DNA from: Candidatus Sumerlaeia bacterium
GTDB taxonomy: Bacteria > Sumerlaeota > Sumerlaeia > SLMS01
Direction: 5' to 3'
Assembly (NCBI GenBank): GCA_038208905.1
Contig: JBBQYG010000001.1
Location: 7,789-71,788, forward strand
DNA length: 64,000 bases
Below are positions 9,748 through 58,549 of this stretch, piece after piece. A program made the position numbers and the translations under genes. The notes beneath the pieces are model-generated. The model made no database searches. It saw nothing but the letters and a program-made list of their open reading frames with translations, and was not told where the DNA came from. Each line of letters starts with the position of its first letter. Position 1 is the first letter of the stretch.

Positions 9748-9748
9748 C

Positions 9749-11735: not shown

Positions 11736-11833
11736 GAACGGTTACTTCCCAAGGCGTGGAGTCACCGGGATCCCGGCGCGCCTGTGAGGTGGATTGATTG
11801 GCGGATGCCCGCCACCGGCGCAACCCCAAGCAT

Positions 11834-11880
11834 CGAATTGTAGTATTTGGTCACAAATGTATCATTGGTTACAAATTGGC
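11834..11880. promoter_or_regulatory. AT-rich direct-repeat element in the divergent promoter region; candidate metal-repressor operator
   Basis: The only AT-rich stretch in a roughly 220-bp GC-rich intergenic region. It reads gaattgtagtatttggtcacaaatgtatcattggttacaaattgg, i.e. two 12-mers TTGGTCACAAAT / TTGGTTACAAAT 6 nt apart, about 80 nt upstream of the binding-protein gene ATG. Confidence 0.3.
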
Positions 11881-11958
11881 TTGCCATCCCCCCGCCAATG
11901 GCCCCACACACATCGCGTCGCCGGTGGAACGGTGGCAGACTCCACCGAGGCCCGGTCC

Positions 11959-16902: not shown

Positions 16903-17997
16903 CTAAACCACCGGATCTTCCGCCTCGTTCGTGTGGGCCATCATCTTGACGCGAAGTTCGTCGGGATAGGTGGCGCGCTCGAGGGCGACATCTCCGTTGA
17001 CCTGACCGGCCTTGTAGAGGCGGAACAGGAAATCGTCCATGGTCATCATGCCCATCTTGGCGGAGATCTGGATCTGGGAGAAGAGGCGGTTGGTCTTGTG
17101 CTCGCGGATGAGCGAGGCGACGGCGGGGACGTTGTGGAGGATCTCGTAGGCGGCGCGGCGGCCCTTGCCGGACGCGTGGGGGACGAGCGTTTGGGCGATG
17201 ATCGTCTTGAGCGCCACGGAGAGCACCGCGCGCACCTGTTCCTGTTGGTTGGCTGGGAAGGCGTCGATCATGCGGTCAACGGTGGAGGATGCGTCGATGG
17301 TGTGCAGCGTTCCGAACACCAAGTGGCCTGTTTCCGCGGCGTGGAGGCCGGCTTCCATCGTTTCCAAATCTCGCATTTCACCCACCAGAATCACGTCGGG
17401 GTCCTGACGCAGCGCGCCGCGGAGCGCGTAGGAGAAGCTGGGCGTGTCCACGTGGATTTCGCGATGGGTGACGATGGCCTTCTTGTGGGGGTGGATGTAC
17501 TCGATCGGGTCCTCGATGGTGATGATGTGGACGTAGCGGTTCACGTTGATGTAGTCGATCAGCGTCGCCAGCGTGGTCGTCTTGCCGGAGCCGGTGGGGC
17601 CGGTGATAATGCAGAGACCGCGGTGGGCGTGGAGCACGTTGATGATCGATTCCTTGGGAAGGCCAAGGACCTCGAACGGCAGCAGCCGCGAGGGAATGAG
17701 TCGCATGACGATGCTGATGTTGCCGCGCGCGCGGAACACGGCCACGCGGAAACGGGCCTGGTCGGAGTAGGAGTAGGCGAAGTCGGCGGAGCCGTGCTCC
17801 TGAAGCATCTGCTGATAGCGCGGCGGCGTGATTTCGCGCATCAGGCGCTCGGAATCGTCGGGCGTCAGGATGTCGGGATCGACCACGTCCAAGGTGCCGC
17901 CAAGCCGCATGACGGCGGCCTTGCCGACGGAGATGTGAAGGTCGGAGCCATCGCGCTCGACGATGATCTTCAGCATCTCGTTGATGTCCATTGCCAT
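16903..17997 (-). CDS. pilT: Type IV pilus retraction ATPase PilT
   Basis: Start taken at MAMDINEML... (ATG 17995-17997). Walker A GPTGSGKTTT. Asp box. Walker B. His box (ETGHLVFGTLHT). The long ORF-track N-terminal extension is non-coding-like. Confidence 0.9.
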   Translation of the reverse strand: MAMDINEMLKIIVERDGSDLHISVGKAAVMRLGGTLDVVDPDILTPDDSERLMREITPPRYQQMLQEHGSADFAYSYSDQARFRVAVFRARGNISIVMRLIPSRLLPFEVLGLPKESIINVLHAHRGLCIITGPTGSGKTTTLATLIDYINVNRYVHIITIEDPIEYIHPHKKAIVTHREIHVDTPSFSYALRGALRQDPDVILVGEMRDLETMEAGLHAAETGHLVFGTLHTIDASSTVDRMIDAFPANQQEQVRAVLSVALKTIIAQTLVPHASGKGRRAAYEILHNVPAVASLIREHKTNRLFSQIQISAKMGMMTMDDFLFRLYKAGQVNGDVALERATYPDELRVKMMAHTNEAEDPVV

Positions 17998-18278
17998 GGG
18001 TGAAGCGGCTCCTTGGCGGCGGATGCGCCGCGCGGACGGTTGGTTGGGCGTGCCCAATGGCCAGAGGATGGAACGCCCGCTCGAGGCTGTCAATGCGAGG
18101 TGTGGGTTGGGGGATGGGGCATCCACCAGCGATTTGGGATCACTGGAAAGTGTCGAGTTATCCAGGTCACCATGGTCATTAAGGTCATATAAGCGTCGTC
18201 CCGCGCCATCCTCGCGCTTGCCCACCCGCCCACCGACTCCCACGCTTTCTCCGACAGTCAATCCCCGGAGGAACCCTC

Positions 18279-20153: not shown

Positions 20154-21251
20154 ATGCTGTCCGTTCGCCTCGATGACCTCCTCGTGGAGATGGTTGAAAA
20201 GGGCGCGTCCGACCTGTTTCTGAAGGCAGGCGTCGGCCCCCACATCCGCGTGGATGGCAAAATTCAGATGATGGACTATGGGGAGTTGACCCTGGAAGAG
20301 ACCCAGGAAATCGCCTATGGCATGATGACCGAGGAGCAGATCGAGCGCTTCGAGCGAATCCCCGAAATGGATCTGGCGCTCGGCGTGCGGGGCGTGGGCC
20401 GCTTTCGCGTGAACCTGTTCCGCCAGCGCGGCTCCATCGCGATGGTCTTCCGCCACATCAAGTCGCCGGGATTCAGCTTCGAGGATCTGATGCTCCCCGA
20501 TACCGTGCGCCAGCTGGCCGAGAAGAACCGTGGCCTCGTTCTGGTGACGGGCACCACCGGCTCCGGCAAGTCCACGACGCTGGCCGCGATGATCAACCAC
20601 ATCAACACGATCCGCAAGTGCCACATCGTGACCGTGGAAGACCCCATCGAATTCCTCCACGCCGACCGCGAGGCGATCATCAGCCAGCGCGAGGTGGGCT
20701 TCGACACCAAGTCCTTCTCCGACGCGCTGCGCCACGTCCTTCGCCAGGCGCCCGACGTGATTCTGATCGGCGAGATGCGCGACCTGGAGACGGTGCAGAC
20801 CGCCATCGCCGCGGCGGAGACGGGTCACCTCGTCCTGTCCACGCTCCACACCATCGACGCCGTGCAGACGGTGGAGCGCATCATCAACTTCTTCCCCGCC
20901 TATCTCCACGCGCAGATCCGCATGGAAATGGCCCTCGGCCTGCAGGGCGTCATCAGCCAGCGACTTCTTCCCCGCAAGCGCAGCAACGGTCGCGTCCCCG
21001 CGGTGGAGACACTTGTCGCCACGCCCTTCATCAAGAAGCTCCTCAACGAGGGGAAGACCCTCGAAATCCTTCCCGCCATCGAGGAAGGCGGGCACTGGGG
21101 AATGCAGAGCTTCAACCAGGCGCTCCACACCCTGATCCAGAAGGACCTGGTGGCGATGGACATGGCGATGACCTATGCCACGAGTCCCGAGGAACTCCGC
21201 CTCATGGTCGAGGGCATCACCAGCGGCGTCCGCACGATGAGGGCGCGGTAA
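20154..21251 (+). CDS. PilT/PilU-family type IV pilus ATPase (second paralogue)
   Basis: 365 aa. Walker A GTTGSGKSTT. His box ETGHLVLSTLHT. About 45-50% identical to the pilT at 16903..17997. Confidence 0.9.
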   Translation: MLSVRLDDLLVEMVEKGASDLFLKAGVGPHIRVDGKIQMMDYGELTLEETQEIAYGMMTEEQIERFERIPEMDLALGVRGVGRFRVNLFRQRGSIAMVFRHIKSPGFSFEDLMLPDTVRQLAEKNRGLVLVTGTTGSGKSTTLAAMINHINTIRKCHIVTVEDPIEFLHADREAIISQREVGFDTKSFSDALRHVLRQAPDVILIGEMRDLETVQTAIAAAETGHLVLSTLHTIDAVQTVERIINFFPAYLHAQIRMEMALGLQGVISQRLLPRKRSNGRVPAVETLVATPFIKKLLNEGKTLEILPAIEEGGHWGMQSFNQALHTLIQKDLVAMDMAMTYATSPEELRLMVEGITSGVRTMRAR

Positions 21252-21281: not shown

Positions 21282-23474
21282 ATGACGATGCCCGGCGAGC
21301 GGGCATGGCGCTCTCACATTCCGGCCCTCCTGCTCTTGCTGGCGCTTCAGGCCATCGTGCTGCTCCCGATGTTTCCCCCCTGGCGCTGGGGGACGCACCT
21401 GCACAACGACGACGCCCGCATCACCAGCTACATGATCAGCTGGGGCCAGCACGTCCTGTGGACGAGGCCGTGGGACTACTTTGCGATCCCGCTCTTCCAT
21501 CCCGTCCAGGGAATGAAGGCCGTTACCGAGACGAACCAGTTGATGGAGTTGGTGACGGCGCCGCTGCGCATTTTCCGCAATCCCGTGCTCGGCTACAACG
21601 TGCTGATGGTGCTGAACGCCGTGCTGGCTGGGATGGCGGCATACGCATTGTGTTTCTGGGTTACACGCCGGCGCATCGCGGCGGTGTTTGGCGGGTTGGT
21701 TTTCTCCGGCAATGGCTACATGATTTGGCACCTGTGGGGGCATCCGAATATCTGCTGTACGTTCCCAATCCCGCTGGCGGCGCTGTGCTATCTGAAGTGG
21801 AGGAAGGACGGTCGCGCCCCCGCCGCGATCGGCGTGGGCGTCGCGATGGTCTTGCAGTTCGCGGCGAGCCTGTATCTCGGCGTCATCCTCGGAATCGGGC
21901 TCGGCGCGATGTGGCTCTTCGACGCGGCCCGGGCGCCGCGCCGCATCCTGTGCCGTGGCGAACTCAAGCTGATCGGCGCGGTGGCCGCAGCGATGGCGGT
22001 GTCGCTGGCGCTGGCATCGCCCTATCGCGCGATGAACGAGCGCCTGGGAGCGTCGCGCGGCCTCGACCAGGCGACACTGTTTTCGGCGAGCGTGTGGAGC
22101 TACCTCCTCCCCTCCCACATGGAGGGCGGGCCGGAACCCCTCGCGGGCGTGGCGATCCGCAAGGTTGTGCCGATCCGCACGCGCATGGAGGAGGCCTCCT
22201 TTGCTGGGTGGCTCCCGCTCGCGCTTGCCGCGAGCGCCCTTGCGTGGGCATGGCGTCGGCGCGAAAACGCGGAAGCGGAAATCGTCCGCCAGATGAGCGC
22301 CCTCGCGCTCGTGGGATTCGTCCTCTCCCTCGGCCCGTTCCTCTGGACCGGCAACAAGGCCATCGCGTGGCGCCTGCCGTTCTACTTCATCTACGAGTAT
22401 ATTCCCCCGCTCCGGTTCCTGCGCGCGACGGCACGGTTCTCGGTGCTGTGCATGTTGGCGATTTCCGTGGGAGGCGCCGTGGCCGTGGCAAGGATCGAGG
22501 CGTCGCGGCGCCTCGCTCCGGCGGGATTGAGAATTCTACTGGCGGGAATGCTGATCGCGCTGCTGGTTGAATACACACCGATCAGCGCCCCCGCGACACC
22601 CGAGGTTTCCCGCGACGCGACGCGCGCGATCGCAGAGCTCCCTCCCGATTCCATTCTGGCTCCCTTCCCATTCGACAGCGAGCAATGGCTCCCCACGGCG
22701 GCGCTGAAATTCCACCCCACCGTGACGGGCACCGTCGGCGGAGTGTACAATCACCGCTATCGCTCGATCAGGGACGCATTGACCGCGCCGATGAGCGACC
22801 AATTGCTGGCGCGCATCGCCGCGACCGGCGCGAACACGCTCGTCGTGGAGAATGCCGTCCACCTCCCCATTGCTGACAATATGGAGGGCCTGAAGCCCAT
22901 CACTCGCTGGGACGGCGGAGCCGTCTATCGCATCGAGGCCGCGCCCGATGCGGCGTTCGCCGCGTGGATGTCCACCTTACCCGAGCGCCCTGATCTGTCC
23001 CACGTCGCCGCCCCCCCCGCTGGATACGCCCCGTGGAAACCAGTCCGCTGGATCGTGGCCACCGACACCGGCGAATGGATCGAGTACACCGGCGACCCCG
23101 CCATGGATGGATTCATCAGCCGGGGAGGAAGCGACCGCATCGGAGTCGTCGCCGGCGGCGTCCCGCTCGCCCCTTTCCGCCGACTCGCCATCGAGTTCCG
23201 CCACGACAGCATCGGCATCGACCACTCCCAGGCCCGCGTCCAGTGGATCACCACCCGCCGCCCCCTCGTCGCCGATTCGCCCTCCATCTGGACCACCGTC
23301 TCCGGCACCCACGACTGGCAATACGCCACCTTCGACATCGGCGCCAACCCCGCCTTCGATCCCACCGACGAAGTACTCGCCTTCATCCTGGAACTGCCAG
23401 CGGCGAACTACCCGGGCATGAAATGCGAAATCCGCGGCATCGGCGTCGTTGGCGTCTATACAGAGGATAAGTGA
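21282..23474 (+). CDS. Large polytopic membrane protein with a C-terminal soluble domain (possible GT-C-fold glycosyltransferase/YfhO-like)
   Basis: 730 aa. At least 10 predicted TM segments in the first ~430 aa. Early periplasmic loop with NDDARITSY. C-terminal roughly 300-aa non-membrane domain. No definitive family match from sequence alone. Confidence 0.55.
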   Translation: MTMPGERAWRSHIPALLLLLALQAIVLLPMFPPWRWGTHLHNDDARITSYMISWGQHVLWTRPWDYFAIPLFHPVQGMKAVTETNQLMELVTAPLRIFRNPVLGYNVLMVLNAVLAGMAAYALCFWVTRRRIAAVFGGLVFSGNGYMIWHLWGHPNICCTFPIPLAALCYLKWRKDGRAPAAIGVGVAMVLQFAASLYLGVILGIGLGAMWLFDAARAPRRILCRGELKLIGAVAAAMAVSLALASPYRAMNERLGASRGLDQATLFSASVWSYLLPSHMEGGPEPLAGVAIRKVVPIRTRMEEASFAGWLPLALAASALAWAWRRRENAEAEIVRQMSALALVGFVLSLGPFLWTGNKAIAWRLPFYFIYEYIPPLRFLRATARFSVLCMLAISVGGAVAVARIEASRRLAPAGLRILLAGMLIALLVEYTPISAPATPEVSRDATRAIAELPPDSILAPFPFDSEQWLPTAALKFHPTVTGTVGGVYNHRYRSIRDALTAPMSDQLLARIAATGANTLVVENAVHLPIADNMEGLKPITRWDGGAVYRIEAAPDAAFAAWMSTLPERPDLSHVAAPPAGYAPWKPVRWIVATDTGEWIEYTGDPAMDGFISRGGSDRIGVVAGGVPLAPFRRLAIEFRHDSIGIDHSQARVQWITTRRPLVADSPSIWTTVSGTHDWQYATFDIGANPAFDPTDEVLAFILELPAANYPGMKCEIRGIGVVGVYTEDK

Positions 23475-32643: not shown

Positions 32644-32672
32644 CGCGCCCCGGGAAAAAGCCCCGGGGCGCG
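32644..32672 (-). terminator. Rho-independent terminator after the secretin gene
   Basis: Perfect hairpin cgcgccccggg(aaaaag)cccggggcgcg. On the minus-strand transcript it is followed by UUUCAUU. Confidence 0.55.
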
Positions 32673-32697: not shown

Positions 32698-35600
32698 TTA
32701 GTCCTTCACGACGTTACCGGTGAGGAAGATGAGGAGCGTAATCTTGTCCTCGGTGTTCTGGGTCCGGTTGAATAGGTACTTGCCGATGAAGGGAATGTCG
32801 CGGAGAATCGGGACGCCGGACTCGAGGTCCTGCGTGCGCTCCGACCGCCATCCACCGAGGACCACCGTGCCGCCGTCCTTGATGCGGGCCCTGGTGGTCA
32901 GTTCCTTGCGGATGCGGCCCACGTCGGCGAAGCGGCTGGCCTGGGGAAGCGTGGTGGCGGGAGCGAGTGCCGACACCGCAGAGGGATCAAGGGTGACGAT
33001 CTGACCGATGTTCTGATCGATGTCCTCCATATTCACGTCGATATCCAGCGTGATGTTGCCCGCGCGGGTGACGTTGGGGGTGATCGAGAGATCGACAGGC
33101 GTCAGGCCCGTGACCAAGCTGAGCTGCTGGTTGCCGCCGCCGGTCGCGCCGCCACCAGTTGCTCCCTCGATGGGGCGGGGCGAGCCGAACGAGCGCTCGA
33201 CGATGAAGTCGGCGGTTTCGGTATTCAGCACCGTGACGCGGGGTCCGTTGACGACGTTGATGATTCCCTGGGCCTCGAGCACGCGAAGCGTGAACGAGAT
33301 GGGGGAGCTGCCGTTGCTGACCAGGTAGTTGAAGACGGTCGAGCCCTTGAGGAGGTTTGCGGCCTCGTTCCCCTCGACGGGGGCCTCGAAGGGGCTGCGG
33401 AACTCGTCGCGGTCCTGAGCGAATCGCGAACCGAGAAGAGAATCCGAGAGATCGAAGCCATCGGTCAGGTTGCCGATCGTGAACTCCGGCTTGATTTCCT
33501 TGGCCTTGTTGCTGGCCACCTCGACGAACTTGATCTCGATATCGACCTGAAGCGTCGGGATGTCCAGCGTGCGGACCCAGAACTCCACGCGGCGGAGCTC
33601 TTCGATGCTGTCGTACTCGACGAAGATGGCGTTCAGGTTCTCGATCTCGACGATGGTGAGGCCGGTTTCGGCGCGAACCTGATCGCGCTGGGCCTCGACG
33701 TCGGCCTGAGCCTGATCCTGCACTTGGGTGTCGCCGCCGCCGGTGTTTCCGCCGGGGACGAAGCGGATGGTCAAACGGACTCGGCCTTCGCCGGGCGTGT
33801 TGGAGGGCTTGATGTCATCGGCGACGATCTCGAAGTCCTCGACGAATTGCGAGCGGAACTCCTCGATGGTGACATCCTGGCTGGTGGTGCCGGTGCGGAC
33901 GACCATCTCCACGCTGTCGTCGTTATCGTCCACGGTGTCATTCTCGTTCACGCGCGTAACCCGGAAGTTGCCGCCGTTGAAGTCGAAGTCGTCCTGGACG
34001 CCAAGCGTCTGATTGACCTCGGTGCCGCTGGACGCGCTGGAATCCGCGCTGGCGCTGATTCCGAGGAAGGACTCGATCTGGCCGGCCAGATCGGCGGCAT
34101 TGGCGTGATCGAGGAAGATGATCTTGCTGCGCCGACGCGCATCGATCTGGGGAAGGTTCTCGATGAAGTTCTGCACCGTGGCGATGCGGTCGGCCGTGTC
34201 GGTGATGGTGAGCTGGAGGGAGGCCGGGTCGTACCAGAGGCGACGGCCCTCGGCCTCCGCCTTGCTGTAGCCGTCCTGCGAGTAGAGGAGCGTCTCGACG
34301 ACCGAGCGCACCTGATCCGCGAAGGCGCGGGCAAGGTCGGGGTTGTCGGCGAACTGGGTGATCGGCGTCAGGTTGAAGGTGGCGATGGTGAGCTCATTGC
34401 TGTAGAACTTGGCGAGGAAGTTCTGGTCCTGCAGGATATTGCGGACCTTCTGAACGTTGTCGGCGGTGTCCTTGATGATAAGGGTGCTGCCCTCGATGAT
34501 GAGCTTGCGCTCGGGGTTGAAGGGCTGGAGGTCGTCGGCGACGAGGAGGGCGGAGAGGAGCGCCTTGATCTCGGGGGCCTTGGACTCGTCGATCTCGTAG
34601 CTATCGAAGATGAGCTGCGTGCGCTGCTGGCCGCGCAGGCTCTCCTGAATCTTGCGGATCTTGGAGATGTTGGCCTCGGAATCCGTGACGATCAGCAGGT
34701 TGCGGGCGGTATCGAGGAGGATCTCCTGGCCGAGGAGGCTGGGAACGCCCTTCTCACCGTAAAGCAGGCGCGGAAGCGTGCCGCCCTCGATGAGGGACTC
34801 GATGGTGGATATCTGGTCGGGAGCGAGGCGGAAGACCTCGGTGCGCAGGTCGGGTTCGATGATAACGATGCTCTTGCCCGGTTCGCGGCGCCAGCGGAGG
34901 CCGATGGGAAGCAGCGCGGAATCGAGCACCTCGTGCAGGGCCACGTCTTCCCAGGCGCCCTCGATCTTGGCATTCACTTCGCCGACGATGGAAAAGTCGA
35001 TGCCCGAGAGCACGCGCAGGTTCTGGAGGAAATCCGCGAGGGACATGGCGCCGATGGTCCGCAGGGGAATCGGCGTGTTCATCTTCTCGACGGCGTCGGC
35101 CTCACTCTGCTCAAGGTTCCGCTTTGCGGCCTCGTTGGCCTGGAGGGCGTTGTACTCGGCTTCCGTGCCGGCGAGGTAGGAATCGGGCTTGAGGAACGAA
35201 GGATCGAGGTCCTTGGCATCCAGCCAGCGCTGACGGGCGCGGGCGAGTTCACCCTTCTTGTAGAGGGAAACGCCCTCGTCATAGGCCATCTCGGCCTGAC
35301 GGGTGCGCTCCTTGGAGAGGCGTTCGACATCGGCCTTGGCCGCGGCTTCCTGTGCCTTGACGGCGGCATCGGCCTTGGCAACCGCGGCTGCGGGAGTGGG
35401 GGCGGTCGCTTCGACAGGGGGAACCGGGGTGGGGGCCGGTGTGAACTGGGCGGCGGGGGCGTTGGCAAAGGGGCTGTCGGGGACGCCGGGCGCGGGGGCA
35501 GGCGTGGGCGCCGGAGCGGAAGCGAAGGGGCTGTCGGGAACGGTCGCGGCGGCAGCCGACACGGGGCGTTCGATGACGACAGGAGGCGCGGGAGTGGGAG

Positions 35601-36960
35601 CAGGCGTCGGGGCGGGCGTGGGCTTGGGAGCCTCGGCCACCACGGCGGTCTTCTTGACGGCCTCGGCGGCCGCCTTCTTGTCGTCTTCTGCCTTCTTGGC
35701 GGCAGCGGCGAGGGCCTTCTTCTCTTCTCCGGCCTTCTTGACTGCGGCCGCGTCGGCGATCTTCTTGTCCTCCGCAGCCTTCTTCGCGGCAGCGGCTTCG
35801 CCGACCTTCTTATCGTCCTCGTCCTTCTTTGCGAGAGCGGCTGCCTTCTTGTCGTCTTCCGCCTTCTTCGCCGCAGCGGCCTTCTTATCGGCGTCCACGG
35901 ACTTCATGGCGGAGGAGCTTGCTGCTCCCAGCGACTTGTTGGCCGACTCGAGGCCCTTCTTGGCCTTGGAGTTTGTGGGCGCGGAGGCGAGCACGGCCGC
36001 GTAGGCCTTGGCGGCGCCATCGTAGTTCTTCGCCTTAAGCAGGCGATCGGCGGCGGCGAGGTCCTCCCCGAGCTTCCGCTCCTGAGAGGCGGCGACGAAC
36101 TTCTTCTCCTCGGAGCCAATCTTGGCGAGGAGGGAAGTGGCGGGCTTGTTCTGCTTATCGAGCGCGAAAACGCGGCCGACGGTCTGGCGGGACTTGTCGA
36201 ACTGGTTGGCCTTGAGTTCCGCGCTGGCGGTCTTCAGGAGGCCATCGATCGCGGTCTTGTTCTTGGCGGCGTTGAAGGCGGATTCCTCTTTGGCAATCCG
36301 GGCGGAGAGCTTATCGAGGTCATTCTTGAAGAGCCCCTTGGCGGTCTCGCGCGCGGCGGCCTCGTTCCGGCGGGCCTCGTCGAAACGCTTCTCCTTGGAG
36401 GCGCGTTCGGCGGCCTTGATCCGGTCGCCCACAGCCTTCTCGAGGGATTCTTCGAGGCCCTTGGTGCGCTCCTTCTCGATGCGCTCGCGAAGGCTCTTGG
36501 CGCGTGAGTTGGCCGGGTCGAGTTCCAGTGCCTTGGTGACCTCGACGGCGGCTTCGTCATAGCGGCCTGCATTGCGGCGGTCGTCCGCGGAACGCAGGAT
36601 GCTGGACACTCGCTCTGCGCGGGCGCTGGCGACGGCGGCTTGCTCGGCCGCGGCGATATCCTTGGCGAGCTGGTCGAGACCGGGCGCCTTGGGATCGGCG
36701 GCGCGCGCCCTCTCGAGGAACTCGCGGGCGGCGGAAAACTGCTCCTTCTTCAACTCGGCGCGAGCCGACTTGAGGAGCTGTTCCGCCTGAGCGGTGCCAT
36801 TGGTTTTCTTGGCATCGGTCTGGCTGGACTTGGATGCGGTGTCGTTGGGGGCCGATTGGATCGCCACCGGTGCCAGCATGAGGCTGGCAGCCAGAGTGGC
36901 TTGGATAGCCACGCCTCCGGTTAGCTTTCGTAGGCAACGCCTGCTGCTCTGCCGATTCAT
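32698..36960 (-). CDS. pilQ: Giant type IV pilus/T2SS-type secretin (PilQ-like) with a long N-terminal TPR/coiled-coil and Ala-Lys-rich repeat region
   Basis: 1420 aa. Signal peptide. The first ~420 aa are TPR-like/coiled-coil. A low-complexity (KKAAEDKK)n region is followed by a PTPAPTPAP linker. The C-terminal secretin domain ends ...GGWRSERTQDLESGVPILRDIPFIGKYLFNRTQNTEDKITLLIFLTGNVV. It is downstream of the pilM-N gene. Confidence 0.8.
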   Translation of the reverse strand: MNRQSSRRCLRKLTGGVAIQATLAASLMLAPVAIQSAPNDTASKSSQTDAKKTNGTAQAEQLLKSARAELKKEQFSAAREFLERARAADPKAPGLDQLAKDIAAAEQAAVASARAERVSSILRSADDRRNAGRYDEAAVEVTKALELDPANSRAKSLRERIEKERTKGLEESLEKAVGDRIKAAERASKEKRFDEARRNEAAARETAKGLFKNDLDKLSARIAKEESAFNAAKNKTAIDGLLKTASAELKANQFDKSRQTVGRVFALDKQNKPATSLLAKIGSEEKKFVAASQERKLGEDLAAADRLLKAKNYDGAAKAYAAVLASAPTNSKAKKGLESANKSLGAASSSAMKSVDADKKAAAAKKAEDDKKAAALAKKDEDDKKVGEAAAAKKAAEDKKIADAAAVKKAGEEKKALAAAAKKAEDDKKAAAEAVKKTAVVAEAPKPTPAPTPAPTPAPPVVIERPVSAAAATVPDSPFASAPAPTPAPAPGVPDSPFANAPAAQFTPAPTPVPPVEATAPTPAAAVAKADAAVKAQEAAAKADVERLSKERTRQAEMAYDEGVSLYKKGELARARQRWLDAKDLDPSFLKPDSYLAGTEAEYNALQANEAAKRNLEQSEADAVEKMNTPIPLRTIGAMSLADFLQNLRVLSGIDFSIVGEVNAKIEGAWEDVALHEVLDSALLPIGLRWRREPGKSIVIIEPDLRTEVFRLAPDQISTIESLIEGGTLPRLLYGEKGVPSLLGQEILLDTARNLLIVTDSEANISKIRKIQESLRGQQRTQLIFDSYEIDESKAPEIKALLSALLVADDLQPFNPERKLIIEGSTLIIKDTADNVQKVRNILQDQNFLAKFYSNELTIATFNLTPITQFADNPDLARAFADQVRSVVETLLYSQDGYSKAEAEGRRLWYDPASLQLTITDTADRIATVQNFIENLPQIDARRRSKIIFLDHANAADLAGQIESFLGISASADSSASSGTEVNQTLGVQDDFDFNGGNFRVTRVNENDTVDDNDDSVEMVVRTGTTSQDVTIEEFRSQFVEDFEIVADDIKPSNTPGEGRVRLTIRFVPGGNTGGGDTQVQDQAQADVEAQRDQVRAETGLTIVEIENLNAIFVEYDSIEELRRVEFWVRTLDIPTLQVDIEIKFVEVASNKAKEIKPEFTIGNLTDGFDLSDSLLGSRFAQDRDEFRSPFEAPVEGNEAANLLKGSTVFNYLVSNGSSPISFTLRVLEAQGIINVVNGPRVTVLNTETADFIVERSFGSPRPIEGATGGGATGGGNQQLSLVTGLTPVDLSITPNVTRAGNITLDIDVNMEDIDQNIGQIVTLDPSAVSALAPATTLPQASRFADVGRIRKELTTRARIKDGGTVVLGGWRSERTQDLESGVPILRDIPFIGKYLFNRTQNTEDKITLLIFLTGNVVKD

Positions 36961-37125
36961 AGGCCTCGTGCATCTCCTTGGTTTTCCACTACCAAGACAA
37001 CCTTACTCGTCTCCGGGGGCTTCAATCCACCCGGCAACCGAAAAGGTGTCAAGGAAACAGATGGGCTCTTTTCGCGGTCCATCATCATCGCTGCAATCCT
37101 GTGGTGCACTCCGAAATGCTGTAAA

Positions 37126-37668
37126 TCATGGGGTTGGCGCCACCGGTTGATCCGGCACGGGAGTCGGGGCGGTAATGGCGGCAATCTGGTTCTGTAGGTC
37201 CAGCGCCTCCCGGTGGGACGGATCACGATCCAGAATCCCGTTCACCACCCGCAGGGCATCGGTATACCGCTTCTCCTTGAAGAAGGACTCCGCATTGCGG
37301 TATTCCTTGTTTAACTCCTCGCGGGCGGCGCCTTCCTCGGTGGTGGACTTGCGGTCGAACATGTTGGGGCGGATCAGCTTCACCGCCTTGGTGTCCTTGG
37401 TGATGTCGGTCTGGGTGGAGATCAACTTCCCCTCCACGGCCATGATCGCATCGCGGTAGACGGGGACCACCTTGTCCTTCATCCGCTCGGAGGGAAGCAG
37501 GATCGTGAATTCCTTGGGTGTGGGATTGGGCTGCTCTGGTGGCGTGAAGTTGCTTTCGTTCAGCAGCATGTAGCCCGCGAGGCAGAGCAGCCCAACCAGA
37601 ACCCCGGTCGCCACCAAGTCGGCGCGCTTTTGGAGTTTCTCGAGGATTTCCTTCACCTGGTCGTTCAT
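37126..37668 (-). CDS. Membrane-anchored pilus-operon protein with one TPR-like repeat (at the PilO/PilP position)
   Basis: ATG at 37666-37668. N-terminal TM (LVATGVLVGLLCLAGYMLL). Located between the pilMN fusion and the secretin. Confidence 0.4.
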   Translation of the reverse strand: MNDQVKEILEKLQKRADLVATGVLVGLLCLAGYMLLNESNFTPPEQPNPTPKEFTILLPSERMKDKVVPVYRDAIMAVEGKLISTQTDITKDTKAVKLIRPNMFDRKSTTEEGAAREELNKEYRNAESFFKEKRYTDALRVVNGILDRDPSHREALDLQNQIAAITAPTPVPDQPVAPTP

Positions 37669-37710
37669 CGCGGCATCACCTTGGCGTGTTACCAAATTCC
37701 TGCTTTCCTG

Positions 37711-39657
37711 CTACTGGCGGCGGCGCGATCCGCCCGCTGGGGGGCCGGGGCGGCGCGGAACCGTCGGATCGCCTTCGAAACCTGTGAATCCTCCACCGGG
37801 CTGCGTGCCCGCCCTTGCGGTGGGAACCGGCGTGGGGGTGATCTTGAGGTGGTTGACCTTGTCGATCATCTTGGTCTTGATCGTGAACCGCTGGACTCCC
37901 AGCGGCGAACTGCCCGCGGGGCCCGCAAGGCTCACGATGTCGTCGATCTCGGGATCGATCAGCGTCCGGCCCTTGAGCTTTTCCTTGATCGCGGAGTTGA
38001 ACGTCGCGGCGTCAACCGACTGCTCGCTCTGGGCGACCACCGTCAGCGAGCCATCGTGGCCTGTCTCGATGTCCACGATGGTGATTCCCGGCGGGCGGGC
38101 CTCGGCGAGCAGCGTCAGCACATCGATCCAATAGTCCCGCTGGCCAACGGCCTTGTTGAGGCCCAGGAACTTGTCGGCGATGTCCTGCTGCTCAGCCTGG
38201 GCATCGGTGAAGCGCTTGGACTGGGCGAAGTTCTTGAGGTACTCGCCCTCCAGCGACGAGGCCGCTGCGCCATATTTGACGGAGTAGTCGTTGCCTGCCT
38301 GGGAGGCGAAGAACACCGTGCCACCCACCACCGCAGCCATGACCGCGGCCACCCGATAGGGGAAGTCGCGGGTGATCTTGCGCTCCTCTGGCAGGAAGTC
38401 CACGCGGCAACTGCCGATGCCCATGCCCTGCAGCGCGAGGCCGATGGCGGGGAGGAACGTTGTGATGGCGCCGAGCGTGTCGGGCCAGCGCAGGGGGCTA
38501 TCCGCGGGGAGTTGGTTGGCGATGGAGACGTTCATCGTCAGCTTTTCCTCGAGGTAGGTGTCGATGCCCTTCATCTGGGCCAGGCCGCCGCCCAGAATCA
38601 CGGAGTCGATCGCCATGCCGTCGGGCTGGGTGATGTAGAAGTCGAGGGAACGGCGGATTTCCGTCACGATGCGGTCGGCGACTTCGGTCGCCGCGGCGGA
38701 GGCGTCCTCGTTGAGTTGGCCCTCGGATTCGAAATCGAAATTGTAGGACATCAACTGGGTGGAGGTGGTCTTGATCCGCTCGGCGTCGTGGAAGCTCTCC
38801 ACGGAGCAGCGCCGCTGGATCGCCTTGGTCATCTCGTTGCCGCCCAGGGGGATCGTGCGGTTGAAGAGGACCATTTCCCCCACGCGCCCGCGGCCCACGG
38901 CGAGGTCCATCGTCGTGGCGCCAAGGTTGATGTAGCCCCTGACTTCCTCGTAAGCGAACTCCGCCGGGGCTTCCTCTTCCGGCGCCGCCTCGGGTTCGGG
39001 CTCGGGGGCTGCCTTGCCCTTCTTGCCAAACTTTGGAATCTGGAAGCCAGCGCCCTTGGCCTTTGCCTTGGGACCGGCGGCTTTTCCCCCGTGGGAGAGC
39101 GCGTCGAACAGCTTGGCGGCCTTGGCCTCGTCCATTCCCACGAATTCAAGCGCGTTGAACACGGCGAAGGACGAGACCCCGATGGCGATGGGCGTCAGGC
39201 CGGTCTTCGCGGCGAGCGCCATGAAGTCACGAACCTCGTCGATTCGGACGGCGGCGAGGAGGACTTCGACTTCGCCCTCGTCGGCTAGTTCGCGGTGCTG
39301 ATACTGGAGGATCGTCTTGTCGAGCGGGAAGGGGATCTGCTGGCGCGCCTCGTACTGGATGATGCGGGCCAGGCGCTCGTCGGAAGTCTTGGGTAGGCGG
39401 AAACGCCGGGTGAAAATCTTCTGTCCAGAGATAGTGAAGATCGCCTTGCGGCTGGAAAAGCGCCCCTTTTTCAGCACTTCGCGGGCAGTCATCGCGATGG
39501 CCTGACGAACCTCGTCGTCGGCCATGCCGGGGGTTGCCCCCGTTGGCGCCGATTCGGCACGGAGGACGCGAACGCCTTTCTTGTCGAGCGCCAATTCGAC
39601 GATCTTGACCGTGTTGAAGCCAAGATCGACGCCGAGGCATTGCTTTAGCAGGGGCAT
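37711..39657 (-). CDS. pilM: Type IV pilus assembly protein PilM fused to a PilN-like membrane domain
   Basis: N-terminal actin-like fold with GVDLGFNTVKIVEL and the FtsA/PilM motifs, interrupted by a Lys/Ala/Pro/Glu-rich insert. After ~420 aa there is a TM (VAAVMAAVVGGTVFF) and a PilN-like periplasmic domain. Confidence 0.8.
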   Translation of the reverse strand: MPLLKQCLGVDLGFNTVKIVELALDKKGVRVLRAESAPTGATPGMADDEVRQAIAMTAREVLKKGRFSSRKAIFTISGQKIFTRRFRLPKTSDERLARIIQYEARQQIPFPLDKTILQYQHRELADEGEVEVLLAAVRIDEVRDFMALAAKTGLTPIAIGVSSFAVFNALEFVGMDEAKAAKLFDALSHGGKAAGPKAKAKGAGFQIPKFGKKGKAAPEPEPEAAPEEEAPAEFAYEEVRGYINLGATTMDLAVGRGRVGEMVLFNRTIPLGGNEMTKAIQRRCSVESFHDAERIKTTSTQLMSYNFDFESEGQLNEDASAAATEVADRIVTEIRRSLDFYITQPDGMAIDSVILGGGLAQMKGIDTYLEEKLTMNVSIANQLPADSPLRWPDTLGAITTFLPAIGLALQGMGIGSCRVDFLPEERKITRDFPYRVAAVMAAVVGGTVFFASQAGNDYSVKYGAAASSLEGEYLKNFAQSKRFTDAQAEQQDIADKFLGLNKAVGQRDYWIDVLTLLAEARPPGITIVDIETGHDGSLTVVAQSEQSVDAATFNSAIKEKLKGRTLIDPEIDDIVSLAGPAGSSPLGVQRFTIKTKMIDKVNHLKITPTPVPTARAGTQPGGGFTGFEGDPTVPRRPGPPAGGSRRRQ

Positions 39658-39923: not shown

Positions 39924-42050
39924 TCAACGTGATTCCTCCGACCCCGCGACAAACTCCGCCATCGAGGTGGGAAGTTCGAGCGCGGCGACGACGCGCTCCA
40001 CCGCCAGCAGCCGCATCGCGTGGTTGACGGGAAGGCCGCGGCACTCCTCCGGGAGCAGGTCGCCGGGCCCGGCGGATAGCGTCCGGATTGGCGGTGGCTC
40101 CTCGCCCTCCAGCCTCGGCAGCGGCCCCCAGCGATGCTGACCCGTCATGCCGAAAAGCACCATCGCTGGCGCACCAACCGCCTGGGCCAGATGGGCGGGA
40201 CCCGAGTCGCACCCAACAAAGAAGAGCGCACCCGCAAGTAACGCCGCCAACTCGTCCGAATCCAACGCGCCATGCAGGCTGTGGCACCACGGGCGCTTGC
40301 GCAGCGGACCGGCCAGCGCCATGCGTCCCTCTCGCGAGCCGACAAGCAGCACCGGGAAGCCGCGAGCATGCAGCTCGTCGGCCAGTCCCAGAAAACTTGC
40401 GAGGGGCCAGAACTTGTCCCGGCTGTCGGCCTCCACATGGAGCACGGCGTAGGTCCCGGGGTCCGCACCGGCGCGCTCCAGTAAACGCGTGCGGCGTTCG
40501 AGGGCAGGGGCGCTCGGCAGGACGCGCGGGCGTTCCAGCCGGGCGGCGATCCCGAAGGGCGCCAGCAGGTCGAGGATCGCGGCGACCTCGGGCTTTTCCA
40601 TGCTCTTGGCCACCGGTGCGGCCAGCAGGTCGCCCCACACCTGCTCCTTCAGGCCGTTATCCCCCCGCCAGCCGACGACCGGCGCGCCGGCCTGCAGGAA
40701 CAAGGGCGCCGGGGAAATTCCGTGGCAATATGCCAGCAGGACGACATCGGGCACGATGCAATCCAGGAACCGGGCGAATTGCCATGCGGCCCGGGGAGAT
40801 CGCCCTCTCGCCGCATCGGGAACCTCGCGAACGCGCACGTTTTCGGGCACGTTTGCCCTCAACACCGGCGCCGAGACGGGGCCCGCCAGGAGGTCAATCC
40901 GCGTCCCGGGAAAAGCCAAAGCCAACTGCCCCACCATCGGGAGCGCCAGCACGGCGTCACCCAGCATATCGTGCAGCACCACTTGGATCCGGGCCGGGCT
41001 CTCACCCGCTTGGGGAATGGCGCGGTCACCCCGCGAGGCGTGGTGGGCGGCGGCGATTCCGGGGCGGATGGCCTGCTTGGCGGCGGAAGCGAGCGCTCGC
41101 GCGCCCTCCCCCAGCAGCATCCCAACTCGGTCCATCGGCGAGATGCGGGTGTCGGGGTCGTCCAGCGCGTATTCGAGGAAGGCCCACTGGCGCCGCGCCC
41201 AAACCGTCCGGCTTTCCCACGACTGACTCAGTGGGATCCCGCGGCGATAGGTGTCCTCCAGCGCACCGAATGGCGCGAAGGCGATATCTCGCGCGGCGGG
41301 GCGGATTTCCTCCACCAGGCGCTCGCGATTCCAGAAGCCCCGTCCGTCCTGACGGGCGCGCTCCCGGGCGCGGTCGCGGTTGATGCGGTTCAGCGGCAGG
41401 TGGTGCCAGACGAGGGCCGTGGGCTCGACGCCGACCGGGAGCCCCGCGCGGCGGAGCTCTCTCCAGAACTGGGAATCCTCGCGGCTGTACTCGTAGTTCC
41501 ACGTGAGGGAAGACTTGTCGGAGGTGATTTCGCGGAAGGGAAAGTCCGCGGCCAGGCGACGCTCGAAGATCAGGTTGGAGGTCGTGGGAATATCCAGCCG
41601 TCCGCCGAGCTTTCCGAAGAACGTGGGCGTGCTGCACCCGATGGTCCATGCGAGTTCGGGGGAGTACCAGTTGGGCGAGAGCATCTCCGCCGCGGGAAGG
41701 ACAGCTCCACCGGCGGCCACCCATTGGTTGCGATCGAGGGCGGCGAGCAGGCGCTCCAGCCAGAACCGGTCAACCTCGCAATCATCGTCGATGAAGGCCA
41801 CCAGCTCCGAGGTAGCCGCCGCGACGCCGGCGTTGCGGCACTCGGTGAAGGTGCCCTCGGGCCCGGGGATCACGCGGTGGGGAAAGGCGAAGCGCGCGGA
41901 GGCGAGATACTGCTCCGTGTCGTCGGTGGACTGATTGTTGACGATCACCACCTCAGCCGGAAGGGCGGTCCCCGACCCCAGCGCGCCCAGTGCCTGGGCC
42001 AGCAGCGCCCGCCGGTTGGCGGTCATGATGACGACGGAGACAGACCTCAT
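39924..42050 (-). CDS. Bifunctional glycosyltransferase: N-terminal GT2 domain fused to a C-terminal GT9 (ADP-heptose:LPS heptosyltransferase-like) domain
   Basis: N-terminus VVIMTANRRALL...VIVNNQSTDDT...AFIDDDCEV (GT2 DxD region). C-terminal ~330 aa carry GT9 motifs (HVEADSRDKFWPL...GFPVLLVGSREG...FVGCDSGPAHLAQAVGAPAMVLFG). Confidence 0.75.
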   Translation of the reverse strand: MRSVSVVIMTANRRALLAQALGALGSGTALPAEVVIVNNQSTDDTEQYLASARFAFPHRVIPGPEGTFTECRNAGVAAATSELVAFIDDDCEVDRFWLERLLAALDRNQWVAAGGAVLPAAEMLSPNWYSPELAWTIGCSTPTFFGKLGGRLDIPTTSNLIFERRLAADFPFREITSDKSSLTWNYEYSREDSQFWRELRRAGLPVGVEPTALVWHHLPLNRINRDRARERARQDGRGFWNRERLVEEIRPAARDIAFAPFGALEDTYRRGIPLSQSWESRTVWARRQWAFLEYALDDPDTRISPMDRVGMLLGEGARALASAAKQAIRPGIAAAHHASRGDRAIPQAGESPARIQVVLHDMLGDAVLALPMVGQLALAFPGTRIDLLAGPVSAPVLRANVPENVRVREVPDAARGRSPRAAWQFARFLDCIVPDVVLLAYCHGISPAPLFLQAGAPVVGWRGDNGLKEQVWGDLLAAPVAKSMEKPEVAAILDLLAPFGIAARLERPRVLPSAPALERRTRLLERAGADPGTYAVLHVEADSRDKFWPLASFLGLADELHARGFPVLLVGSREGRMALAGPLRKRPWCHSLHGALDSDELAALLAGALFFVGCDSGPAHLAQAVGAPAMVLFGMTGQHRWGPLPRLEGEEPPPIRTLSAGPGDLLPEECRGLPVNHAMRLLAVERVVAALELPTSMAEFVAGSEESR

Positions 42051-42335: not shown

Positions 42336-44429
42336 TTGGCCCTGACCAGCAATCCCGACTACCGCATGATCGCCGCCGGGTCGGCGGCGGATGCGCGGGG
42401 TCCCTCGCTCTCCGTCGTCGTTCGCCTGGCGCGGGGCGCGGCCTATGTGGCCATCGCCGTGTTGATGGGTTACTTCCTCTCCGTTGGCACCATCGAGAGC
42501 CGGTCGTTCTATCTGCTGGCCTTCGCGACCGGCTGGCTGAACCCGGTATGGAGCATCTACGCCCTGGCGATGATGGGGCCGACGTATCTCCTGGACCAGT
42601 CCAAGACACACCTGCTGGCGGGGATCGAGGTGTTCATCCTCGGCATGTTTGCCGGAGAACTTCGCCTGGTGGGGAGGCCGATCCGCGGCGCCAACGCGGA
42701 AGACCAACGCGACGCCACGATGGACGTGGGCGGCGCGGCGCCACCGGTGTATTGGGGCGTATGGCCCCATTATCTGGTGGGACTGCTGCTGATGCTGGCG
42801 GCGTCCTCGCTGGTGGGGCTGCAACTGGTGGTCTTTCGCGAGAACGCGGGCGAGGCGCGCTTCTCCCAGAACAACCTGATCAACGGCCTGAGCCAGATGT
42901 TTTACTTCGCCGCGACAGCGCCGGAGTGGACGCTCAAGTCTCTCTGGAACTGGGCGACCGGCGCGCTGGTCGCCGTGATAGTCGCCCGCCGCGCGACGCC
43001 AATCATCGCGGCGCGATGGATGAAGATCGGCGGCGTGGCGCTGTTGGCGGCGTGCTTCTTTGGATTTCTGGAGTGGCGCGGATGGCTTTCGCTTCATCAC
43101 GTGCGCGCGCCCAATCCCGATCCGCTCCACGCGGGGCGCTTTCAGGGCACCGCCGGCCACGCGGGCTGGTTTGCCCAGTGGATCGTGCTGATGTGGCCGG
43201 GCCTGCTGCTGTGGTGGGCGTGGGGGCGCGGAAAGCGCAACGTCGCCGTGGCCGGCGCGCTGGCGTTCGTGGCCATGGCGCTGGTGCTGACGGCGGCGCG
43301 CGCGGGATGGCTGGGCGCGATGGTGGGCGGGGCGCTGGGCGGCGTGTATCTCTTCGTCCACTACCCGGCGCTGCGGCGGCAACTGCCCAAGGTTCTCGCC
43401 ATCGCAATCGCCATCGCGGCGGTGGGCGTCTTCTTTGGCGGAGATGTGCTCTGGCACCGCGTGACGAATCTGCTGAGGGCGCAGGACCGCGCGAACTACT
43501 ACGTTTCGGGGCTCCTTTTCCTCCGCGAACATCCCTTCGGCCTCGGCCTTGGCACGCACTTCCAGTTCTATGACTGGTGGATCAACCCCTCGTGGACGTG
43601 GGCGCAATTCGACCATGTGGACTCCCACTCGATCTGGCTGCACACCTTCATCGAGAACGGCCCCTTCGTGCCGATGATGATCCTGGCGGGTCTCATTGGC
43701 ACGGTGCTGGAAGTCCGCAAGTCGTGGGCGCTGATGGACGAGCACACCCGCGCCATCCTGGTGGCGCTGTGCCTGGCGCTGGCGGGAATCTTCACCGTGG
43801 GATTCGCCCAGTACCTGCCGTATATACGCATTGTGGAGCTGTCGATCTGGATCGCCTTTGGCCTGCTGGTGGGTATTTGCCGCAAGAAGCGCGCGCGCCA
43901 GGCAGAGCCCGTGCAGAGCGCCCGCGGGCCGCGGCTCCTGCTGCTCTGCGGCGGCGGCGCCCTGCTGATGGCGAGCATGAACGCCCCGCGCGCCGTGACG
44001 AATTCGCTGCCACGCGCCTACTCGAGGGAGAAGGACGGCGCCGTCTCCGTCTGGACGACGGGCGAGTGGCGCACGGTGGTGGATCGCGACATCGACCACA
44101 TCGCGTTCTCGCTGTATCGCAAGGGCTATCCCGACCATAAGGTGAAGGGCCTCCCGGCGCATGGCGCGGTCACCTGGCCAGACGGGCGGCGCGAGACGTT
44201 CACGCTCCAGCCGGAGGAGTGGCGCTACTTCGAAATGCGCCGCGAGAGCCGCACGCCCGAGCGCTGGGCCGCGCCGGAGTTCCTCTCCATCGCCGTGACC
44301 CCGCTCTTTACTCCCGCCGAGTTCGACCCCGGGAGCGCCGACCGCCGGCAGCTTGGCGTCTATCTCAATGGCCTGACCTTCGAGTCGGAACGCCGCGAGA
44401 AGCGCGACGAGCCGATCTGGCGCTATTGA
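42336..44429 (+). CDS. O-antigen ligase/polymerase-family (Wzy_C/WaaL-like) polytopic membrane protein with a C-terminal soluble domain
   Basis: 697 aa. At least 10 TM segments. Periplasmic loop with HSIWLHTFIENGPFV and an FGLGLG block typical of the O-antigen ligase domain. C-terminal roughly 180-aa hydrophilic domain. Confidence 0.65.
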   Translation: MALTSNPDYRMIAAGSAADARGPSLSVVVRLARGAAYVAIAVLMGYFLSVGTIESRSFYLLAFATGWLNPVWSIYALAMMGPTYLLDQSKTHLLAGIEVFILGMFAGELRLVGRPIRGANAEDQRDATMDVGGAAPPVYWGVWPHYLVGLLLMLAASSLVGLQLVVFRENAGEARFSQNNLINGLSQMFYFAATAPEWTLKSLWNWATGALVAVIVARRATPIIAARWMKIGGVALLAACFFGFLEWRGWLSLHHVRAPNPDPLHAGRFQGTAGHAGWFAQWIVLMWPGLLLWWAWGRGKRNVAVAGALAFVAMALVLTAARAGWLGAMVGGALGGVYLFVHYPALRRQLPKVLAIAIAIAAVGVFFGGDVLWHRVTNLLRAQDRANYYVSGLLFLREHPFGLGLGTHFQFYDWWINPSWTWAQFDHVDSHSIWLHTFIENGPFVPMMILAGLIGTVLEVRKSWALMDEHTRAILVALCLALAGIFTVGFAQYLPYIRIVELSIWIAFGLLVGICRKKRARQAEPVQSARGPRLLLLCGGGALLMASMNAPRAVTNSLPRAYSREKDGAVSVWTTGEWRTVVDRDIDHIAFSLYRKGYPDHKVKGLPAHGAVTWPDGRRETFTLQPEEWRYFEMRRESRTPERWAAPEFLSIAVTPLFTPAEFDPGSADRRQLGVYLNGLTFESERREKRDEPIWRY

Positions 44430-58475: not shown

Positions 58476-58549
58476 GCCTTGCGTCCAGCCGGTCCACCGC
58501 GAGGATTCTCCCCTCAGAGGGTCGGGGATCGGGGGATGACAACTTGGCG

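Follow-up and report, generated by a model that had tools for sequence, protein, structure and literature searches.

How might a secretin be coupled to its inner-membrane platform when the operon that encodes it holds neither PilO nor PilP? The question is raised by a locus of Candidatus Sumerlaeia bacterium, located in a 64,000-nucleotide stretch of contig JBBQYG010000001.1 (assembly GCA_038208905.1, positions 7,789 to 71,788) that we call the window and to which all coordinates refer unless another locus is named. Three consecutive minus-strand open reading frames (ORFs) in this window encode a PilM protein fused to a PilN-like domain (PilMN), a small membrane protein with one tetratricopeptide repeat (TPR), and a secretin of 1420 aa that carries a long TPR-containing tail ahead of its conserved core (Table 1). 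We consider it quite likely that these genes specify the alignment-plus-secretin module of a type IV filament machine, probably a type IVa-pilus-like one. On balance we also lean, by a little, towards a fuller reading in which the three proteins make up the envelope-spanning scaffold of such a machine, with the secretin tail, the small TPR protein and the PilN domain linking the secretin to the inner-membrane platform.

A compact three-gene locus

The three ORFs are spaced by 42 bp and 165 bp, with pilMN lying 750 bp upstream of the secretin gene on the same strand, and all three have a GC content at third codon positions (GC3) of 0.81-0.85, as real coding sequence does in this 65% GC genome. 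Because they share a strand, are separated by short gaps and are followed after the last stop codon by a terminator-like hairpin, the three genes look like one operon. Downstream of the hairpin lies polA, and 266 bp upstream of pilMN lies a glycosyltransferase gene with GT2 and GT9 domains. The order pilMN-TPR-secretin was kept in 15 of 15 Sumerlaeota loci in which the upstream region is present, and also in a distant relative (L023:8001-15271, PilMN 30% identical), where the order is pilMN, TPR protein, secretin, polA.

Table 1. Coordinates of the operon, its encoded domains and the pilT genes in the window; residues are numbered within each protein
Feature	Position	Strand	Extent	Basis or description
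pilMN fusion gene	39657..37711	(-)	648 aa	Pfam, TIGRFAM, AlphaFold2 (AF2) model, orthologue alignment
PilM actin-like cytoplasmic domain	38425..39657	(-)	residues 1-411	
Junction motif V-D-F-L-P-x-E-x-K-x-x-R-x-F	38362..38403	(-)	residues 419-432	Straight after PilM domain
Single transmembrane helix of PilN part	38296..38352	(-)	residues 436-454	Hydropathy; starts AF2 helix 434-503
Periplasmic PilN-like part	37867..38295	(-)	to residue 503, then 509-597	Coiled-coil helix, then ferredoxin-like domain (AF2)
Small TPR protein gene	37668..37126	(-)	180 aa	ATG start; hydropathy, alignment
Secretin gene	36960..32698	(-)	1420 aa plus stop	Pfam Secretin; same ORF in L025
Signal peptide	36853..36960	(-)	about residues 1-36	Sole hydrophobic segment, residues 16-35 (hydropathy scan)
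N-terminal TPR-like helical region	35926..36792	(-)	about residues 57-345	Pfam Fis1_TPR_C, TPR_19, TPR_14, TPR_2, several stretches each
Ala/Lys/Asp/Glu repeat tract	35641..35904	(-)	residues 353-440, 88 aa	A 36%, K 28%, D 12%, E 9%
Pro/Ala/Thr linker	35371..35640	(-)	residues 441-530, 90 aa	P 30%, A 29%, V 10%, T 10%; poorly conserved
TPR-like hairpin and long helix just before N0	35080..35328	(-)	residues 545-627	AF2 helices, pLDDT 79-90
N0 (STN-like) domain	34828..35073	(-)	residues 630-711	AF2 topology; Foldseek matches to GspD/XcpQ N0-N2 crystal structures
Three N1-type ring-building domains	34159..34821	(-)	residues 714-777, 784-843, 846-934	AF2 model, Secretin_N
Last N domain	33565..34131	(-)	residues 944-1132	Split by beta-rich insertion and acidic disordered loop (AF2)
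Secretin barrel and gate region	32701..33549	(-)	residues 1138-1420	Pfam Secretin 1228-1419; PDB and Foldseek matches
Terminator-like hairpin	32672..32644	(-)	12 pairs, 11 G-C, T-rich tail	Just 3' of secretin stop, before polA
PilT/PilU-family ATPase gene	16903..18261	(-)	452 aa	TIGR01420, 422 bits vs cut-off 319
PilT/PilU-family ATPase gene	20154..21251	(+)	365 aa	TIGR01420, 453 bits vs cut-off 319

PilM and PilN are joined in one polypeptide

The 648-aa protein is a true PilM-PilN fusion. It matched Pfam PilM_2 (PF11104, E = 2e-35, 122.7 bits versus a cut-off of 27) and TIGR01175 pilM (140.4 bits versus 133), and Foldseek searches with its AF2 model (mean predicted local distance difference test, pLDDT, 86; predicted template modelling score, pTM, 0.68) gave a top TM-score of 0.82 that was common to Thermus PilM (2ych) and to 5eou, a crystallised Pseudomonas PilM:PilN1-12 chimera whose chain name puts PilN after PilM, the same order as in the fusion. 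The fold of the cytoplasmic domain is thus closest to PilM, and its nucleotide-binding motifs are retained, with the actin-fold motif residues D11, G13, G246, D251, G357 and G358 invariant or nearly so among 16 orthologues. In the same 16 sequences D420, F421, L422, P423, R430 and F432 of the junction motif are invariant; we take this VDFLP motif to be the counterpart of the N-terminal INLLP peptide with which PilN binds PilM in the 2YCH and 5EOU complexes.

Beyond the membrane helix, the ferredoxin-like domain has the topology alpha-beta-beta-alpha-beta-beta, modelled mostly at pLDDT 85-95, and is followed by a disordered Pro/Gly tail. Pfam PilN (PF05137) matched eight of the 16 fusion orthologues (best E = 7e-5) and also the distant L023 orthologue, at 42 bits versus a cut-off of 22.8, and the Joint Genome Institute (JGI) annotation labels two family members 'PilM family ATPase / PilN'. 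The fused state was found in every one of the 16 aligned Sumerlaeota orthologues, which rules out a frameshift artefact.

Between the PilM subdomains there is a variable Lys/Pro/Glu-rich insertion, modelled at low confidence (residues about 175-238, window about 38944-39135), that differs in length in every orthologue. A long PilM-like protein from another lineage (L021) has different neighbours and no secretin, and was set aside as uninformative.

The secretin is one intact gene with a TPR-rich tail

Pfam Secretin (PF00263) matched the end of the third protein at 95.4 bits versus a cut-off of 27.5, Secretin_N matched four stretches (30.7 and 37.5 bits versus a cut-off of 28.2, best at residues 876-936), and the C-terminus was matched by sequence to solved GspD and PilQ chains in the PDB. 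An independent JGI metagenome assembly (L025) contains the same uninterrupted ORF, with 1386 of 1393 residues identical (99%) and no gaps; its gene caller placed the start at Met28, which cuts off the signal peptide. Orthologues are encoded at 20 Sumerlaeota loci (1184-1798 aa where complete), an exhaustive HMMER search recovered 135 secretin representatives (50% clusters) at E < 1e-30, and GC3 is uniform at 0.85 along the gene. The N-terminal 900 residues are therefore no separate gene brought in by a missed stop or a misassembly, which these observations rule out. The chain is about twice as long as a model PilQ; within its own family, where complete members span about 1050-2030 aa, a length of 1420 aa with a 544-aa tail is ordinary and about mid-range. 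The tail is the most length-variable part, such that the conserved core begins about 240-1140 residues in.

The tail begins with a signal peptide, and inspection of the sequence after its hydrophobic stretch found no lipobox cysteine. Its helical region resembled only generic consensus TPRs in a PDB search. The Ala/Lys/Asp/Glu tract that follows coincides with a DNA tandem repeat at 35646-35880 (period 42-45 bp, about five copies) and differs in length among homologues. In the homologue alignment the family-wide conserved core starts at residue 545 with the TPR-like hairpin that precedes N0, in which W578, D585, P586 and Y594 are invariant and which can be aligned even with the distant L023 secretin.

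The core was modelled with AF2 as residues 545-1420 only, from 34 sequences, at a mean pLDDT of 75. Foldseek matched it to GspD, InvG and PilQ structures down to E 1e-22, the best matches being InvG and the full-length type II secretins 8co1, 5wq8 and 6hcg; PilQ structures cover the barrel alone, and GspD/XcpQ N0-N2 structures cover the N-terminal domains. Assignment of N0 agrees with the Pfam STN domain recorded for several homologues and with matches of STN and type_II_gspD_N0 to the L023 homologue, both below cut-off. The beta-rich insertion of the last N domain (residues 981-1067, window 33760-34020) is conserved in the family. No AMIN domain (PF11741) was matched by Pfam in the secretin, even at E <= 10, and there is no S domain, the chain stopping at the end of the secretin domain.

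Two observations stand beside this anatomy. At L019:9905-10678, in the same metagenome-assembled genome as L018, lies a separate 257-aa ORF that matches secretin residues 857-1075 at 44% identity. The matched stretch comprises the N domain together with the beta insertion, and the ORF could be either a paralogue or a fragment of a gene. A D-x-P-F peptide that occurs twice in the Pro-rich linker of the window protein was considered as a TPR ligand and rejected, being present in only three or four close homologues.

The gene between fusion and secretin encodes a small TPR protein

The 180-aa product of the middle gene has an N-terminal transmembrane helix at residues 16-37 by hydropathy and is bitopic and anchored in the inner membrane, with no lipobox cysteine after its hydrophobic region. 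The helix leads into a Pro-rich spacer that varies among orthologues and then into a conserved N-M-F-D motif and a single TPR-like hairpin, after which the chain ends in a low-complexity tail. The start at ATG 37668, as called in L025, is more likely than TTG 37695. TPR models matched all 11 aligned orthologues, and none of the 11 was matched by the PilO (PF04350) or GspM (T2SSM) hidden Markov models (HMMs) at E <= 1; the protein itself had no NCBIfam match and nothing specific in the PDB. With TPR matches alone, we rejected its identification as PilO or GspM. An equivalent gene, missed by BLAST, occupies the same position in L004, L011, L017 and L018, and L023 has one as well.

Together these results uphold most of what a sequence-only reading of the locus had proposed. 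The domain and fold matches bear out a type IV pilus-family block. The joining of PilM to a PilN-like part is established by TIGR01175, the VDFLP motif, the membrane helix, the AF2 domain and the PilN matches of orthologues, and a single small membrane protein does lie between it and the secretin. Pfam and composition recover the TPR N-region, the Lys/Ala/Glu/Asp tract and the Pro-rich linker; domain annotation found Secretin, Secretin_N and TPR where AMIN had also been looked for. The description of the secretin as unusually large stands only against model PilQ.

Sumerlaeota genomes carry pilM and lack annotated pilN and pilP

Every named relative of the secretin or of the fusion belongs to Candidatus Sumerlaeota (formerly BRC1), which the NCBI taxonomy lists among candidate phyla, outside the Planctomycetes-Verrucomicrobia-Chlamydiae (PVC) group. 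The sequence-only reading had linked the locus to PVC bacteria and their enlarged periplasm, and the identity of the relatives and this placement show the attribution to PVC to be wrong. Its one partial echo is that the best NCBIfam match of the fusion, far below cut-off, is Amuc_1101 of Akkermansia (Verrucomicrobia).

A genomics paper on the phylum (PMC8092238) gives the type IV pilus twitching genes one sentence plus tables, and we took gene counts from the KEGG table of 16 Sumerlaeota genomes in its supplement. These genomes have 1-4 copies of pilM each and no pilN or pilP in any of the 16, with one copy of pilO in 11. Secretins are annotated as pilQ (0-2 copies per genome) or gspD (0-7), and pilB (1-8), pilC (1-7), pilT (1-12) and pilD are present. 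On the type II side gspC is absent from all 16 and gspE and gspF from most, and GspG-type pseudopilin genes number 1-26 per genome.

The fusion explains why automated annotation finds no pilN in Sumerlaeota: PilN is missing from the list because it is fused to PilM. The absence of pilP is likewise accounted for by the layout of the operon and fits a different link to the secretin. The remodelled inner-membrane platform foreseen from the sequence is thereby supported, by an operon without PilO or PilP and with a TPR protein there, and by the empty pilN and pilP columns. Whether separate pilO and pilP genes exist elsewhere has a divided answer, affirmative for pilO in most of the tabulated genomes and negative for pilP in all of them.

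How the scaffold may be built

In model systems PilP, with PilO, links the secretin to the inner-membrane platform. In the Sumerlaeota machine, the presence of PilM and PilN on one polypeptide would lock the cytoplasmic ring and the periplasmic alignment layer in a 1:1 ratio, in a GspL-like manner. The five stacked N domains of the secretin would prolong the channel downward from the outer membrane, and since N0 would be the secretin domain nearest the inner membrane, the N-terminal tail would reach further towards that membrane. There the tail, the small TPR protein and the PilN domain could together link the secretin to the inner-membrane platform, with the charged Ala/Lys/Asp/Glu repeat and the Pro-rich linker acting as length-adjustable spacers. 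TPR scaffolds fused to the outer-membrane exporters BcsC, PgaA and PelB work as such spacers or links.

Indirect support for this proposal comes from the contrast between a tail of very variable length and an invariant TPR hairpin beside N0, from the constant presence of the small TPR gene, and from the distant L023 locus. The L023 secretin is only 1016 aa long and its tail only about 190 aa, and the counterpart of the small TPR protein has 509 aa, which suggests that helical-repeat material can sit either on the secretin or on the membrane-anchored partner. The specific tether mechanism for the TPR tail is offered tentatively, as somewhat less likely than not. That the TPR, charged-helix and proline tether, the membrane TPR protein and PilMN replace the PilP bridge, and perhaps that of PilO, with repeats exchangeable between partners, is a bolder proposal that we think doubtful.

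Several observations weigh against the scaffold as we draw it. PilO is annotated elsewhere in 11 of the 16 genomes and could join the complex, in which case the small TPR protein would not have to stand in for it. NCBIfam and PDB searches gave the TPR tail no specific similarity to any characterised protein, and the window PilMN itself had no Pfam PilN match at E <= 10. The secretin scores slightly better against GspD (TIGR02517, 121.6 bits versus a cut-off of 351.35, E 3e-35, spanning residues 824-1420) than against PilQ (TIGR02515, 115.3 bits versus 284.35), and it falls below both cut-offs. Lastly, profile scans of the window proteins recovered neither pilB nor pilC, nor a gene for a pilin or a prepilin peptidase, anywhere in the 64 kb.

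Secretin-platform coupling is understood only for a small number of machines, from proteobacteria, myxobacteria and Thermus, and every one of these uses PilN/PilO/PilP or GspC/L/M. A phylum-wide family that drops PilP, fuses PilM to PilN and places TPRs on the secretin and on a small partner is a natural experiment in which components of the bridge a machine can do without, and its three genes make a compact target for structure determination. If the bolder proposal is correct, the coupling would be of a kind not described for any type IV filament machine. Our literature searches found no description of TPR-fused secretins, of the small TPR partner or of natural PilM-PilN fusions. Every component family was known before, and we see no sign of a new biological function.

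Alternative explanations

The strongest rival is that the genes encode outer components of a type II secretion apparatus that exports folded proteins, and not a pilus machine, with the secretin as GspD, the fusion as a GspL-like protein and the small protein in the position of GspM. The best fold matches of the secretin core are full-length GspD structures, the NCBIfam GspD model has a marginally better E-value than the PilQ model, and the fused PilM-PilN has the architecture of GspL and is followed by a small bitopic protein as GspL is by GspM. Annotation leans the same way in places, since JGI labels some homologues of the secretin GspD/PulD and NCBI labels one fusion orthologue (P0139) GspL, and GspG-type pseudopilin genes are many in the phylum. 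However, T2SSL (PF05134) matched only one of the 16 fusion orthologues, at E = 0.03, and their cytoplasmic domain is PilM-type rather than GspL-type; the small protein is a TPR protein and not GspM; gspC is missing throughout the phylum table, gspE and gspF are mostly missing, and the window contains no gsp genes; and the secretin lacks an S domain and scores about a third of the GspD cut-off. On these grounds we regard a type II system as unlikely.

A second possibility concerns the tail alone, which might be a built-in pilotin or assembly chaperone, equivalent to PilF/PilW/Tgl or TadD, that serves outer-membrane targeting and multimerisation of the secretin. Known pilotins that serve secretins of the type IVa and Tad kinds belong to the TPR proteins (PMC10653833, PMC10499894), our profile scans saw no separate pilotin gene in the operon or window, and the secretin has no S domain for a pilotin of the type II kind. 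Yet the tail has no lipobox and so is not anchored in the outer membrane, it shows no specific similarity to PilW/PilF models or structures (its PDB matches being generic TPRs), and it is joined through about 180 low-complexity residues to the N0 end, the end farthest from the outer membrane. A 360-aa TPR_14 protein encoded at 8764-9846 (-) is moreover a candidate for a separate TPR pilotin in the same window. A built-in pilotin is, in our judgement, distinctly improbable.

The channel could also export polysaccharide or slime through a TPR scaffold in the manner of BcsC, PgaA or PelB, a reading that we consider very improbable. It draws on the glycosyltransferase gene directly upstream, which is syntenic in close relatives, and on the fusion of TPRs to an outer-membrane exporter, the hallmark of synthase-dependent polysaccharide systems. 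However, the glycosyltransferase gene stands 266 bp apart and is absent at L006, L009 and L014, and polA and rho are just as syntenic, such that its linkage reflects relatedness rather than function. The secretin shares its operon with PilM-PilN, a protein not known to take part in the export of polysaccharide. In favour of the idea, there are reports that secretins serve as slime nozzles in cyanobacteria and in myxobacteria (PMC12475490).

An artefact, in which two genes were joined by error or a frameshift made the fusion, can be dismissed, since its only suspicious sign, the low-complexity repeat DNA in the secretin gene, is outweighed by the uninterrupted ORF in L025, the orthologues in about 20 genomes and among 135 representatives, and the fusion in all 16 orthologues.

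Other genes of the window

The two PilT paralogues noticed in the first reading are confirmed by TIGR01420 and lie 11-16 kb from the secretin gene; the longer has an N-terminal extension of about 90 aa, its pilT_fam match beginning at residue 93. With up to a dozen pilT copies per genome in the phylum, two nearby PilT genes are weak evidence of a functional link. Beginning 31 bp after the 365-aa PilT gene is the gene of a 730-aa protein (21282-23474, +) that, like a 697-aa protein encoded at 42336-44429 (+), looks like a polytopic membrane protein and has no Pfam or NCBIfam match.

The glycosyltransferase upstream of pilMN combines GT2 and GT9 (heptosyltransferase-like) in one 708-aa protein (39924-42050, -), syntenic in the closer Sumerlaeota loci and not in the distant ones. 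Farther away, adjoining ABC-3 (Mn/Zn-type) permeases at 13831-15201 (+) and 15201-16505 (+) each carry a C-terminal Fe_dep_repr_C domain, the metal-binding and dimerisation domain of DtxR type; such a fusion of permease and repressor sensor is unusual. They adjoin genes for a ZnuA binding protein (11794-12903) and an ABC ATPase (13022-13834). A 1540-aa protein encoded at 58184-62806 (+) has Peptidase_C25 (gingipain-like) and CARDB domains.

Comparison with known systems

Among characterised machines, the type IVa PilMNOPQ systems of Pseudomonas, Myxococcus and Thermus share with the Sumerlaeota operon the PilN docking motif, transmembrane helix, coiled coil and ferredoxin-like domain, a gene order that opens with pilM/N and closes with the secretin, a secretin without an S domain, and PilT ATPases in the genome. 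In Sumerlaeota, however, PilM and PilN are covalently fused, the operon has a single-TPR bitopic protein in place of PilO and PilP, and the secretin lacks AMIN domains and instead has N0 plus four N domains, preceded by some 545 aa made up of TPR and low-complexity stretches.

Type II secretion systems are alike in the architecture of GspL, in the small bitopic protein that follows it and in the N0-N1-N2-N3-secretin stack of GspD, the best match of the core model. The small Sumerlaeota protein is a TPR protein, whereas GspM is ferredoxin-like, and the Sumerlaeota secretin has one N domain more, a beta insertion and a TPR tail, with no S domain and no linked gspC, gspE, gspF or gspG.

The Amuc_1098-Amuc_1102 cluster of Akkermansia muciniphila combines a long PilM-like protein, a secretin and small signal-peptide proteins (PMC5332112). 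The NCBIfam model of Amuc_1101 (NF045709), a 'PilM-like pilus complex protein' of 608 positions, matched residues 243-554 of the fusion (E = 1e-48), through the membrane helix into the periplasmic part, and this similarity indicates that a long PilM with a membrane and a periplasmic part is not unique to Sumerlaeota. Scores are nevertheless far below the cut-offs, at 166.2 versus 650 bits for Amuc_1101 and 46 versus 750 for Amuc_1098, and the 805 positions of the Amuc_1098 model imply no long tail.

Two further systems place TPRs at an outer-membrane channel. BcsC, PgaA, PelB and AlgK-AlgE have a long periplasmic TPR region on the polypeptide of the channel and N-terminal to it (compare PMC8892547), and the likeness is an analogy of architecture only: their channel is a monomeric beta-barrel porin, whereas the Sumerlaeota channel would be a multimeric secretin with partners of the type IV filament family, and no homology was detected between them. 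PilF/PilW/Tgl and TadD likewise bring TPRs to secretins of the type IV family. They do so as separate outer-membrane lipoproteins, whereas the TPRs of Sumerlaeota are carried on the secretin itself and on a protein anchored in the inner membrane.

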